Shown here: positions 34,934-44,846 of the stretch, one piece after another
Position numbering within the stretch: position 1 is the first letter of the stretch
Layout of the letters: each line of letters opens with the position of its first letter
Assembly (NCBI GenBank): GCA_963813135.1
Contig: CAWEXY010000011.1
Span: forward strand, 182,374 to 246,373
From: an uncultured Verrucomicrobiae bacterium
GTDB lineage: Bacteria; Chlamydiota; Chlamydiia; Chlamydiales; Rhabdochlamydiaceae
Direction: 5' to 3'
Length of the DNA: 64,000 nt
Program-made: the position numbers and the translations under genes
Notes under the pieces: generated by a model
What the model was told of the DNA's origin: nothing
The model's database searches: none
What the model saw: the letters and a program-made list of their open reading frames with translations, nothing else

Positions 34934-35963
34934 ACCCTTTCAGCTGGGGAGCTTGACGCTTCCCTCGAATGTTTTTTGCGCGCCCTTGGCGGGATGCTCC
35001 GACCTTCCTTTTCGGCGGATGACCAAGAAATACCGCCCGGGTCTGATCTACTGTGAAATGGTCAAGATGGACGCTCTTGTCCGCCACGACCCCAATACCT
35101 ATCATCTTCTCGATTTTGAAAAAGAGATGCACCCCATCGGGGCCCAAATCTGTGGAAGTAAAGCCAGCATGGCCGGCCCTGCGGCTAAAATTATTGAGGA
35201 CCTCGGTTTTGATGTTGTTGACCTCAATTGCGGCTGCCCCGTCGATAAGGTCACCAAAGATGGCAGCGGGTCGGGCCTTTTAAAGACGCCTTTCCTGATC
35301 GGAGAGCTCATTTCTAATATGGTTGCCGCGGTGAAAATCCCGGTCACTGTCAAAATCCGCGCCGGCTGGGACGAGCAGCATATCAATGGCGCTGAAATTA
35401 CGCGCATCGCGGAAAGCGCCGGGGCTGCCGCCATCTGTATCCATGGAAGGACTAGGGCGCAGGGCTACAAAGGCCCGGCGAACTGGAAATGGATCCGCGA
35501 GTGCCGGGAAGCGGCGAAGAAAATTTTGGTGATTGGCAATGGCGATCTTTTTGCCGCCGAAGATGCGCCAAGGATGTTTGAGGAGACGGGATGCGACGCG
35601 CTCCTTCTTTCTCGGGGCACGATGGGCCAGCCTTGGCTGATCGAAGACATCTATCGCCATTTAGAAGGCGAGCCTCCTTTGCAGCGTACAGCGGCCGATT
35701 ACCGCGCCGAGCTTCTGGAGCATCTCGGCCATGTTGTTTCGTATCATCCCGATCGCAAAGCGGCCATGGAGATGCGCCGTATCGGCTGCTGGTATTTGAA
35801 GCGCGGCAAAGGCGCGCGCAAATTGCGGGAAAAGATCAATCAAAGCAGGACAGTCGCTGAAACGCGCCAGCATATTTTAGATTTTACATGGGACGAAATT
35901 GATTTTTCGTATGTATTCGGGGACATTGACGCCCTCTCTGGGGCTGGGGGGACTGGCAGCTGA
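34917..35963 (+). CDS. dus: tRNA-dihydrouridine synthase; its last 18 codons are supplied by an inserted element
   Basis: APLAGCSDLPFRRM, DLNCGCPVDKVTKDGSGSGLL, ICIHGRTRAQGYKGPANW and LLSRGTMGQPWL are Dus-family blocks. From 35908 onward the ORF runs into the MITE-like insertion. Confidence 0.85.
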   Translation: MPFLSKPFQLGSLTLPSNVFCAPLAGCSDLPFRRMTKKYRPGLIYCEMVKMDALVRHDPNTYHLLDFEKEMHPIGAQICGSKASMAGPAAKIIEDLGFDVVDLNCGCPVDKVTKDGSGSGLLKTPFLIGELISNMVAAVKIPVTVKIRAGWDEQHINGAEITRIAESAGAAAICIHGRTRAQGYKGPANWKWIRECREAAKKILVIGNGDLFAAEDAPRMFEETGCDALLLSRGTMGQPWLIEDIYRHLEGEPPLQRTAADYRAELLEHLGHVVSYHPDRKAAMEMRRIGCWYLKRGKGARKLREKINQSRTVAETRQHILDFTWDEIDFSYVFGDIDALSGAGGTGS

Positions 35964-36112
35964 AGCTGCCCTTGGCCAATCCCGGCGTTGCCCTGGCTTC
36001 GCCAACCCCATAAAGGGGTTGTCTGCATCGGGCGCCTTGGGAACGCTTGCTTTGCAAGCTTTGGCCACCCCGCATTCCCCATATAAGGTATCAATGTCCC
36101 CGAATACATACG
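35908..36112. mobile_element. 205-bp MITE-like insertion with terminal inverted repeats
   Basis: CGTATGTATTCGGGGACATTGAC (35908-35930) matches TCAATGTCCCCGAATACATACG (36091-36112) as an inverted repeat at 22 of 23 positions. ATTTT flanks both ends (35902-35906 and 36113-36117). A central hairpin CAACCCC-ATAAA-GGGGTTG lies at 36003-36021. The paralogous junction at 41708-41782 lacks the element. Confidence 0.6.
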
Positions 36113-36132
36113 ATTTTCCGAGGAAGAGGTCA

Positions 36133-36396
36133 TTGAAAACGCAGCTGGATGTGATATTTAAAGGTGAGGTGCAAGGCGTGGGCTTTCGGGCGACGTGCCG
36201 CCGCATTGCTCATCGTCTAGGTCTGACGGGCTTTGCGCGTAATTTGCCCAGCGGCGACGTCGAGTTGCTCGCCCAGGGCGAAAAGGCTTCTTTAGAGGCC
36301 ATGCTCAGAGAGCTTAAATCCAATTTTTCCATCACAGAACAGGAAGAAAACTTTTCGGCGCCGACAAAAATCTACGAGGATTTTTCTGTTGGCTGA
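36133..36396 (+). CDS. acyP: acylphosphatase
   Basis: The TTG start at 36133 follows GAGGAAGAGG and gives 87 aa. VIFKGEVQGVGFRATCRRIAHRLGLTGFARNLPSGDVELLAQGE is the acylphosphatase signature. The long track ORF from 35899 reads through the MITE. Confidence 0.8.
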   Translation: MKTQLDVIFKGEVQGVGFRATCRRIAHRLGLTGFARNLPSGDVELLAQGEKASLEAMLRELKSNFSITEQEENFSAPTKIYEDFSVG

Positions 36397-36532
36397 CTTT
36401 TTAACTGGATCACATGCATAAGCAACAAGTTCTTAGCCTTTTAAGGCAAATTTCTTTACAATGGAGTCGACAAAAAAAAGTGGGTAAAAAAAAGACAAAA
36501 ATTTTGAAATTCTAAGTGCATAGGAGGTACTT

Positions 36533-43626: not shown

Positions 43627-43676
43627 AGGTATAATTTTCCAGGTATTTGAAAGTAAATTTTCCAATAAATGGCTTT

Positions 43677-44096
43677 TTAAGCTGGATTGTATAAATTTAG
43701 CTGAATCACTTTTTCAAAATAGGGGTCTTTCCCAATGCCATTGCTAATTTCTATTCGCCAAGAGCCTTGTGGTTCGAGATTTCTTAAAATTCTTTCTTGT
43801 TCTGTAATTGGCAATTCAGAAAGCTTTTTATCCGGGGTGCGAGGTGAAAATATTCCTTTCCTCTCTTCTTTCAAGCCTTTTACCTTTTCAGAAGTTGACA
43901 TCATTTCAGCGTTTATTTTATCTCCTGAAAGAGATGAAATTTCTTTCCAATTCCCACGGTCAAAAGCAAATATTTTTGCTTGAATTGTTTGAGGATTTCC
44001 TTCCTCTTGCTGGAATTCAATTTTTCTATTTGGCTCGCTTCCGGCTCCATAAAAATATCTATATTCCGCTACGTTAATTATCCTGCCCATTAGCAA
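43677..44096 (-). CDS. hypothetical 139-aa protein
   Basis: The only evidence is the ORF itself, in an A/T-rich context. Confidence 0.4.
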   Translation of the reverse strand: MLMGRIINVAEYRYFYGAGSEPNRKIEFQQEEGNPQTIQAKIFAFDRGNWKEISSLSGDKINAEMMSTSEKVKGLKEERKGIFSPRTPDKKLSELPITEQERILRNLEPQGSWRIEISNGIGKDPYFEKVIQLNLYNPA

Positions 44097-44219
44097 CCTC
44101 CTCTTTCGTTTTGGGCGAATTTTAATTTGTCTATGACTTTATTGCACGTTAAATTTAAATAGTAAAACTGTTATAAACAGATTTCCCAGAGTATAGTTGG
44201 TGCTGCACAGAATCTGAGA

Positions 44220-44846
44220 CTATCGAGGTTTTTTGACGATGGAATTTTGATTTTCAAATGAAGAGAAGAAAACGTGGAGTTTGTCGAGGGCTTTGCGGCG
44301 GTGCGAGATGCGGTTTTTGAGCATCTCTTCGATTTGCGCAAAGGTTTTTCCGTATTCGTGTTTGATGAAAAGGCTGTCGTAGCCAAAGCCGCGGCTTCCT
44401 TTTTCTTCCGTGGTGATATTTCCTTCGCAAAGGCCGCGGACGCATTTTTGGAGGCCTTCGGGCGAGGCGATCGCAAGAAAACATTCGAAGTAAGCTTGGC
44501 GGTTGGGATCCGCTAGGTCGCGCATTTCACGCAGCAGCTTGTGTCGATTTTCGGCATCGGTGGCGTGTTCGCCTGCAAATCGGGCCGAAACGACGCCAGG
44601 AGCGCCGCCAAGGGCGGGAACGACGAGGCCGGAATCATCGGCAATCACCCAGCGCCTCAGCTCTTTGGCAGCATGCAGAGCTTTTAGCTTGGCGTTTTCT
44701 TCAAAGGAACGGCCTGTTTCTTCAGGGGGTTTATAGTTGGGGAAGTCATGCAGGGAAAGAATATCGAATTGAGGATATGCCTTGAGCATCGCGCGGAGTT
44801 CGCGGATCTTGTGCACGTTCCGGCTGGCAATGACTAGTTCCATCAC
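44220..44846 (-). CDS. rdgB: non-canonical purine NTP pyrophosphatase (RdgB/HAM1)
   Basis: [54 protein letters not shown] and ISHRRKAL are RdgB/ITPase blocks. Confidence 0.9.
   Translation of the reverse strand: MMELVIASRNVHKIRELRAMLKAYPQFDILSLHDFPNYKPPEETGRSFEENAKLKALHAAKELRRWVIADDSGLVVPALGGAPGVVSARFAGEHATDAENRHKLLREMRDLADPNRQAYFECFLAIASPEGLQKCVRGLCEGNITTEEKGSRGFGYDSLFIKHEYGKTFAQIEEMLKNRISHRRKALDKLHVFFSSFENQNSIVKKPR

Follow-up and report, generated by a model that had tools for sequence, protein, structure and literature searches.

A scar between rdgB and acyP in an environmental chlamydia suggests that two alleles of one variable interval were joined end to end

Introduction

How does a chromosome come to carry, in the midst of unrelated accessory genes, a decayed piece of the gene at their right-hand border joined to a decayed piece of the genes at their left-hand border? 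The question is raised by a 64,000-nt stretch of DNA from an environmental member of the Chlamydiota (contig CAWEXY010000011.1 of assembly GCA_963813135.1; hereafter the window, position 1 being its first letter), in which the housekeeping genes dus and acyP, on the left, and rdgB, on the right, enclose two sets of A/T-rich cargo genes with a scar of the form rdgB'|dus'-acyP' between them. A sequence-only reading of the window had taken this scar for the footprint of an old tandem duplication whose truncated pieces are decaying. The layout it described has largely stood up to analysis and the history has not: we lean towards the view that the locus comprises two diverged alleles of a single hypervariable interval, concatenated by capture from a related lineage.

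Results

A duplication-type junction between pieces of rdgB and of dus-acyP

Genes were identified by their Pfam families (Dus, Acylphosphatase, GerE/LuxR, Ham1 for rdgB, and GreA). Those on which the argument turns, and the pieces that make up the scar, are as follows.

34917-35963, + strand: dus, live (Pfam Dus, E 5e-80)
36133-36396, + strand: acyP, live (Pfam Acylphosphatase, E 3e-20; 73% identical to acyP of L002, the relative described below)
41402-41707, - strand: rdgB' fragment, a copy of 44215-44609 that spans codons ~80-208, the stop and 5 nt beyond
41708-41782, + strand: relic of the dus 3' end and acyP 5' start (dus'-acyP'; found by blastn), which keeps an empty site and the ancestral dus tail from before the insertion of an element
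44220-44846, - strand: rdgB, live (Ham1 family, Pfam E 1e-62; stop codon 44220-44222)
44846-47005, - strand: greA, long chlamydial type (Pfam), which served as synteny anchor

Both intact genes survive, acyP in the left half and rdgB in the right, as had been proposed. Positions 41200-41950 were compared by blastn with the whole window. Four matches were obtained, all on the same strand: 41402-41532 with 44215-44345 (90.8%, E 3e-48), 41524-41707 with 44426-44609 (84.2%, E 1e-53), 41708-41739 with 35877-35908 (93.8%, E 4e-8) and 41735-41775 with 36114-36154 (80.5%, E 8e-5); the scar has no comparable blastn match elsewhere in the 64 kb, and a repeat search gave identical pairs. The decayed rdgB copy therefore has the orientation of the live gene and starts just past its stop, 5 nt beyond, and the scar is a true b|a junction in which the equivalent of 44609 in rdgB is joined to the equivalent of 35877 in dus, the copies being direct and collinear. 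Its dus' part represents the final 87 nt of the ancestral dus frame and its acyP' part to the first ~14 codons of acyP. There is no microhomology at the join, at most 1 nt being common to 41700-41715, 44600-44620 and 35868-35885.

Relative to the live gene rdgB' lacks 89 nt, lost exactly between 8-nt direct repeats, CGCAAAGG, at 44337 and 44426; the fragment retains a single copy of the repeat, at 41524, and its frame is shifted by the loss. The deletion is of the slippage type.

Ancestral order and the variable interval in relatives

The window encodes GreA of the long, 719-aa chlamydial type, which marks it as Chlamydiota, and the related loci retrieved with this protein all come from Chlamydiota metagenome-assembled genomes (MAGs), some of them mislabelled. 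The synteny sample, anchored on GreA and searched by tblastn with all the proteins of the region, consisted of 36 species-representative genomes and 16 metagenome contigs. Pairing of greA with rdgB is nearly universal among these loci, and in ~20 of them acyP and/or dus, on the opposite strand and followed by yggT and a GspL-like gene, lie 0.1-7.4 kb beyond rdgB. The relatives show greA-rdgB-(variable)-acyP-dus-yggT to be the ancestral backbone of the clade. In the closest complete relative, L002 (JAFEGJ010000001; 87% identical to the window in GreA, 91% in dus, 93% in rdgB), the order is greA-rdgB-acyP-dus-yggT with neither cargo nor duplication, rdgB abutting acyP. That rdgB and dus/acyP were once neighbours, as the sequence-only reading required, is thereby established.

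In L002 rdgB and acyP share 25 nt at their 3' ends, an interval tabulated below as -12 nt. The overlapping arrangement appears to be ancestral, and cargo 2 of the window to lie inside a relic acyP', because DYRGFLTMEF-stop can still be read antisense to the rdgB tail of the window, where L002 acyP ends in DYDGFFIL-stop. On this basis we tentatively mark an acyP' 3'-end relic at 44191-44250 (+ strand), overlapping the rdgB tail. A further stretch of acyP' in slot 2, at 44191-44206 (TATAGTTGGTGCTGC compared with L002 acyP), is a weak match that was reached in 31/500 shuffles, and we dropped it as a claim.

What lies between the convergent 3' ends of rdgB and acyP differs from lineage to lineage, and the distance from rdgB to acyP/dus varies widely.

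L002: -12 nt, no cargo
most loci: ~0.5 kb, yacP only
several loci: 1.4-3.2 kb, unrelated open reading frames (ORFs)
L011: 7.4 kb, resistance-nodulation-division (RND) efflux operon
window: 7.8 kb

With relatives ranging from -12 nt to 7.4 kb, the description of this interval as a hot spot is well founded. Closer than L002 in GreA (93-95%) is the relative represented by VFSW01142570 (L048) and VFSW01003612; in L048 (GreA 93%) rdgB is followed by 94 nt of different A/T-rich sequence before the contig ends. In 39 loci a YacP/NYN-like gene (MHYxIDGYNLLF...) follows rdgB (e.g. L003 12786-13271), which suggests a conserved greA-rdgB-yacP unit; this gene is absent from the window and from L002. In L011 (12810-20208; Chlamydiales) the RND-type efflux operon, encoding a 1010-aa pump with 376-aa and 437-aa partners, lies between rdgB and yacP. 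acyP evolves fast in all pairs compared, for example 47% identity between L007 and L052 against 88% for dus; we accordingly rejected the idea that the live acyP is xenologous, its 73% identity to that of L002 being within the normal range.

The whole structure recurs in Logan assembly ERR11630400, which is of the same strain, was possibly built from the same reads, and matches the window at 99.99% over 13.8 kb. It differs by a single-base gap (L001 1443-3601 against window 44846-47005) which splits greA into calls of 483 aa and 243 aa, probably an assembly or homopolymer error and not biology.

The rdgB copies diverged under purifying selection

If the scar arose by tandem duplication its rdgB fragment should have evolved neutrally, because the first 79 codons were missing from birth. 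We estimated synonymous (dS) and non-synonymous (dN) divergence by the Nei-Gojobori method over the 97 codons common to the fragment, the live gene and the orthologues.

live gene and fragment: dS 0.75, dN 0.028, dN/dS 0.037
live gene and L048: dS 0.835, dN 0.042, dN/dS 0.050
live gene and L002: dS 1.448, dN 0.051, dN/dS 0.035

The ratio for the live gene and its fragment is thus within the range of the orthologue pairs, 0.035-0.050. Differences between the two fall at codon positions 1, 2 and 3 in the numbers 4, 3 and 31 (binomial p 4e-6 against the 45% expected with one neutral branch); no stop codon interrupts the fragment in the rdgB frame, and its private amino acid changes are four only: E99K, R101Q, H191R and V192A. 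In simulations of neutral decay after an in-situ duplication, calibrated on third-position divergence, ~36-50 differences at positions 1 and 2 were predicted where 7 are observed, and 7 or fewer were reached in 0/1000 simulations at t >= 0.2. Nucleotide identity to live rdgB is 87% for the fragment, 85% for L048 and 81% for L002. The live protein is 93% identical to those of both L002 and L048.

The low dN/dS indicates that nearly all of the divergence built up in separate genomes, with each copy then part of a functional rdgB gene. On these comparisons rdgB' would have spent little of the divergence time as a pseudogene, and is best described as a recently silenced, diverged allele. The proposal to date the event from the divergence of the fragments would therefore mislead, since that divergence appears to predate their joining.

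Two other signals were followed and set aside. An apparent mosaic in rdgB', with L048 the closer match for the 5' part and the live gene for the 3' tail (Fisher p 0.004), comes from an amino acid-conserved tail of 11 codons, not from synonymous sites. The break in similarity 4-5 nt past the rdgB stop, seen in both copies and in L048, was dropped as evidence for the order of events: similarity must end where selection ends because neutral flanks are saturated at dS ~0.75. Live rdgB resembles L048 and L002 about equally along its length, at 86.9% in the 5' part and 86.4% in region A, with no visible mosaic breakpoint.

A hairpin element in the 3' end of dus

The dus' and acyP' pieces had been compared with 35877-36150 as though with one span. 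The match to dus and acyP holds, but the span is not uninterrupted: it hides a later insert.

35909-36111, unstranded: hairpin element resembling a miniature inverted-repeat transposable element (MITE), recognized by its fold, its flanks and the empty site in the scar and L002

The copy in the scar lacks 35909-36113 of the original, an insert of ~205 nt (203-207 nt). The gap in dus/acyP collinearity thus represents a separate, later insertion, because the scar (41708-41782) and the orthologous site of L002 both keep the empty site, with one copy of GATTTT(T)C. In the window this sequence borders the element on both sides as a 7/8-nt direct repeat. The element has perfect terminal inverted repeats of 21-23 nt (TCGTATGTATTCGGGGACATTGA at 35907-35929, its complement at 36091-36113); it is short, GC-rich (0.59) and without a transposase ORF, and its DNA forms a long hairpin with a folding energy of -67.5 kcal/mol (z -9.3). 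Searches of the 64-kb window and of the fetched loci turned up no further copy.

Insertion has changed the end of dus. In the empty state (L002 and the scar) the gene ends in ...DFSEEEVVEEAAACDI-stop and overlaps the start of acyP; the last 17-18 codons of the live gene (YVFGDIDALSGAGGTGS-stop) are encoded by the element, L002 matching only dus residues 1-331, and the element now separates the dus stop from the acyP start. Short, non-coding, strongly hairpin-forming and with perfect terminal inverted repeats, a 7/8-nt target duplication, an intragenic site and new C-terminal codons supplied to its host gene, it resembles MITEs and the palindromic elements of Rickettsia; unlike them, it is single-copy in the sequence searched.

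Two unrelated sets of cargo

The two slots contain the following.

36397-41401, + strand: slot 1 cargo, GC 0.41 against ~0.50 for the backbone
36533-37354, + strand: LuxR-type regulator (Pfam GerE/LuxR)
37509-37841, + strand: 110-aa ORF
37651/37780-39975, + strand: large protein, 731/774 aa
40011-41246, + strand: 411-aa protein (p411)
41783-44190, unstranded: slot 2 cargo, GC 0.35 against ~0.50 for the backbone
41827-43626, + strand: ORF of the HExxGH protein, 599 aa (p599), likely start 41908
43677-44096, - strand: 139-aa partner (p139)

That the slots hold different A/T-rich cargo had been correctly read: blastp, sensitive blastn and tblastx found no homology between slots 1 and 2, and we rejected a duplicated-cargo model, in which the sets would be paralogous, for want of any similarity. 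Domain searches revealed no integrase, recombinase or transposase in 36397-44214, and no tRNA or Rfam element was found in the region. For the cargo, no Pfam, NCBIfam or PADLOC match was obtained beyond the LuxR helix-turn-helix, and no PDB sequence match. Scans of the region for promoters and terminators gave results at chance level. Among boundary repeats or att sites of the slots the only candidate was a 9-nt repeat, ATAAGCAAC, equalled in 24/500 shuffles over 12 comparisons, which is not significant.

Homologues of the cargo proteins occur elsewhere, and the two sets are unrelated, portable modules. The p599 family comprises ~20 proteins in Chlamydiota, members being ~540-600 aa and their partners ~130-139 aa. 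In every context examined a p599 homologue is paired with a p139 homologue (43-51% identity), in varying relative orientation, and such pairs occur in other Chlamydiota MAGs at four sites unrelated to one another: between rplQ and gapA, between insertion-sequence transposases, beside recR and after dnaK (L039, L041, L042 and L044). The residues H196-E197-x-x-G200-H201, with E245 and D249 ~48 residues on, are invariant across 19 members. HExxGH with a downstream EExxxE/D recalls the zinc motif of the M49/DPP III family; p599 has no Pfam match to M49 even at E 10, nor a PDB sequence match. AlphaFold gives it a confident model (pLDDT 81, pTM 0.81) for which the PDB offers no neighbour, the best Foldseek hit being at E 0.55 and DPP3 at E 2.4-4.2 with TM 0.12-0.16. 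Neither profile nor predicted fold, then, supports membership of M49/DPP III, with which the motif alone agrees.

The LuxR regulator (51% identity) and p411 (49%) recur together at another site, in GCA_034680565.1 (L047 3736-7761), beside a sigma-54 activator and with a different large gene between them, so that luxR-p411 resembles a module whose middle gene can be exchanged. The large protein of slot 1 has only remote relatives (24), which share its C-terminal domain, residues ~440-720 of the 731-aa call. This domain contains GH...H...NCLxW, in which G597-H598, H617 and C689 are invariant or nearly so, a thiol-enzyme-like motif reminiscent of the permuted papain/NlpC-P60-LRAT group; the domain has no Pfam match and no PDB sequence match. 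In its longest reading the large ORF shares ~190 nt with the 110-aa ORF, which lies in a different frame, and lengths of 677, 731 and 774 aa are all possible for the large gene. The structure predicted for p411 is a coiled coil with generic immunoglobulin-like beta-sandwiches. Both families, p599 with p139 and LuxR/p411, are uncharacterised and may merit study of their own.

Discussion

How the locus could have arisen by capture

The junction, the ancestral synteny, the mark of purifying selection on the divergence, the empty site and the unrelated, mobile nature of the two cargo sets are shown by the data; the recombination mechanism is inferred, as would be any choice of the imported side. 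A related chlamydia, perhaps an occupant of the same host cell, would have been the source of incoming DNA in which this backbone flanked cargo of its own, at a synonymous divergence of ~0.75 from the resident copy. One end would have recombined by homology, and the other would have joined illegitimately within the resident backbone, as in homology-facilitated illegitimate recombination (HFIR) or '3'-end displacement'. The illegitimate join would have linked the interior of rdgB (equivalent 44609) to dus at the equivalent of 35877, 87 nt short of the stop, the outcome being one full dus-acyP, one full rdgB and a displaced rdgB'|dus'-acyP' between the cargo sets. The displaced pieces would later have decayed, rdgB' acquiring its four private amino acid changes and its 89-nt deletion and acyP' being mostly lost, and the hairpin element would have inserted into the 3' end of live dus.

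Several considerations weigh against this reading. Two mirror versions of it fit equally well, so that either half could be the imported one: in the first, cargo 2 would have come in between a new rdgB 3' end and the dus'/acyP' end and displaced the 3' part of the native rdgB; in the second, cargo 1 would have come in together with the 3' part of dus, acyP and a truncated end of rdgB, displacing native dus'/acyP'. acyP is uninformative on this point because it evolves too fast, and the live genes show no breakpoint. Among the sampled alleles there is no donor with a near-identical rdgB 3' part, the nearest being L048 at dS 0.61 from the fragment. The divergence estimates rest on only 97 codons. 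We know of no demonstration of HFIR in Chlamydiota. And an in-situ duplication with homologous replacement by a foreign allele yields an identical final sequence.

That last scheme, tandem duplication of dus3'-acyP-rdgB3' in situ, then replacement of one rdgB 3' part by a diverged allele, with the cargo gained separately, is the main rival, though we consider it rather unlikely. The b|a junction is the expected product of tandem duplication, the ancestral unit would have been only ~0.67 kb, homologous exchange of alleles is common in chlamydiae, and high dS with low dN is accounted for as well as it is by capture. Yet at least one event more than capture is called for; live rdgB shows no mosaic breakpoint (86.9% vs 86.4%); and a perfect 0.67-kb tandem repeat would be unstable unless quickly interrupted.

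Arrival of one or more integrase-mediated islands that target the rdgB 3' end and bring a replacement for it is very unlikely. Islands of this kind typically have, at their far end, a displaced piece of the target gene's 3' part, and the cargo is suitably A/T-rich, but 36397-44214 contains no integrase, recombinase or transposase, there is neither a nearby tRNA nor a significant boundary repeat, the insert ends on its far side in a dus/acyP fragment of the same chromosomal neighbourhood and not in an att arm, and the cargo modules are found elsewhere at unrelated sites without rdgB fragments.

Simple old tandem duplication within the genome, its truncated pieces decaying neutrally, accounts for the junction geometry and the synteny, and we nevertheless reject it as more improbable still: it is contradicted by the dN/dS of 0.037 (dS 0.75, dN 0.028), by the position at third sites of 31-32 of the 38-39 differences, by the excess of simulated over observed changes at positions 1 and 2 (none of the 1000 simulations reaching so few), and by an rdgB' without a stop in the rdgB frame. 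Selection on a product of rdgB' itself, which might have rescued this scheme, is argued against by the frameshifting 89-nt deletion and the missing 79 N-terminal codons. Least credible of all is an assembly chimera of two co-occurring related populations, for while this is a metagenome-assembled genome whose copies resemble alleles of different lineages, the junction has no shared sequence for an assembler to bridge, only 32 nt of dus and ~45 nt of acyP lie to its right in place of a second full backbone, and a second assembly, though possibly from the same reads, is identical in structure.

Relation to known systems

The type of event that we favour is already known, and the locus is a clear new example in an environmental chlamydia. 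Arrays of orphan 3' fragments at rhs, contact-dependent inhibition (CDI) and type VI secretion system (T6SS) effector-immunity loci have been attributed to HFIR (Kirchberger et al. 2017, PMC5361080). In those arrays, as here, new cargo lies downstream of a full gene, and beyond the cargo comes an orphan 3' fragment of that gene in the same orientation; on the minus strand of the window the order is rdgB (44846-44220), the p139/p599 cargo, rdgB' (41707-41402). Fragment and live 3' end are likewise diverged alleles, alternative cassettes are stacked, and one end would be homologous and the other illegitimate, a mechanism that for our locus we deduce from the structure. The window differs in that its anchors are the housekeeping genes rdgB and dus/acyP, not polymorphic toxins, in that there is one displacement only, in that the captured far end is a piece of backbone, hence the duplication-type b|a junction, and in that the host is an environmental chlamydia.

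A classical tandem segmental duplication would share the b|a junction, the direct collinear copies and the intact boundary genes, but the copies in the window are not recent paralogues, and bear a signature of purifying selection in both lineages, which no truncated copy could acquire. The hypervariable intervals or plasticity zones that lie between core genes in Chlamydiaceae and other bacteria have, similarly, conserved flanks around lineage-specific, A/T-rich content of unknown function that differs among relatives (here the RND operon of L011, for example); the window interval is much smaller (7.8 kb) and its history can be read from relics.

Implications

We put forward, as a doubtful extension, that in this clade of environmental chlamydiae the rdgB/acyP interval serves as a cassette-stacking site, where alleles of co-infecting relatives are appended, not swapped, by one-sided homologous recombination. 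It would so accumulate modules of secreted effectors, among them a new Chlamydiota-specific HExxGH metalloenzyme with its small partner, and a LuxR-controlled module with a variable large H-H-C thiol-enzyme-like protein.

For reading such loci, the divergence of a fragment from its parent should not be taken as the age of a duplication: dN/dS here turns what appears to be ancient paralogy into evidence for exchange between lineages. The relic has in addition recorded the state of dus before the hairpin element rewrote its C-terminus. For the organism, capture of the kind we favour would mean that an obligate intracellular bacterium can gain accessory genes without mobile-element machinery, by means of housekeeping homology arms and an illegitimate join that leaves a readable scar.

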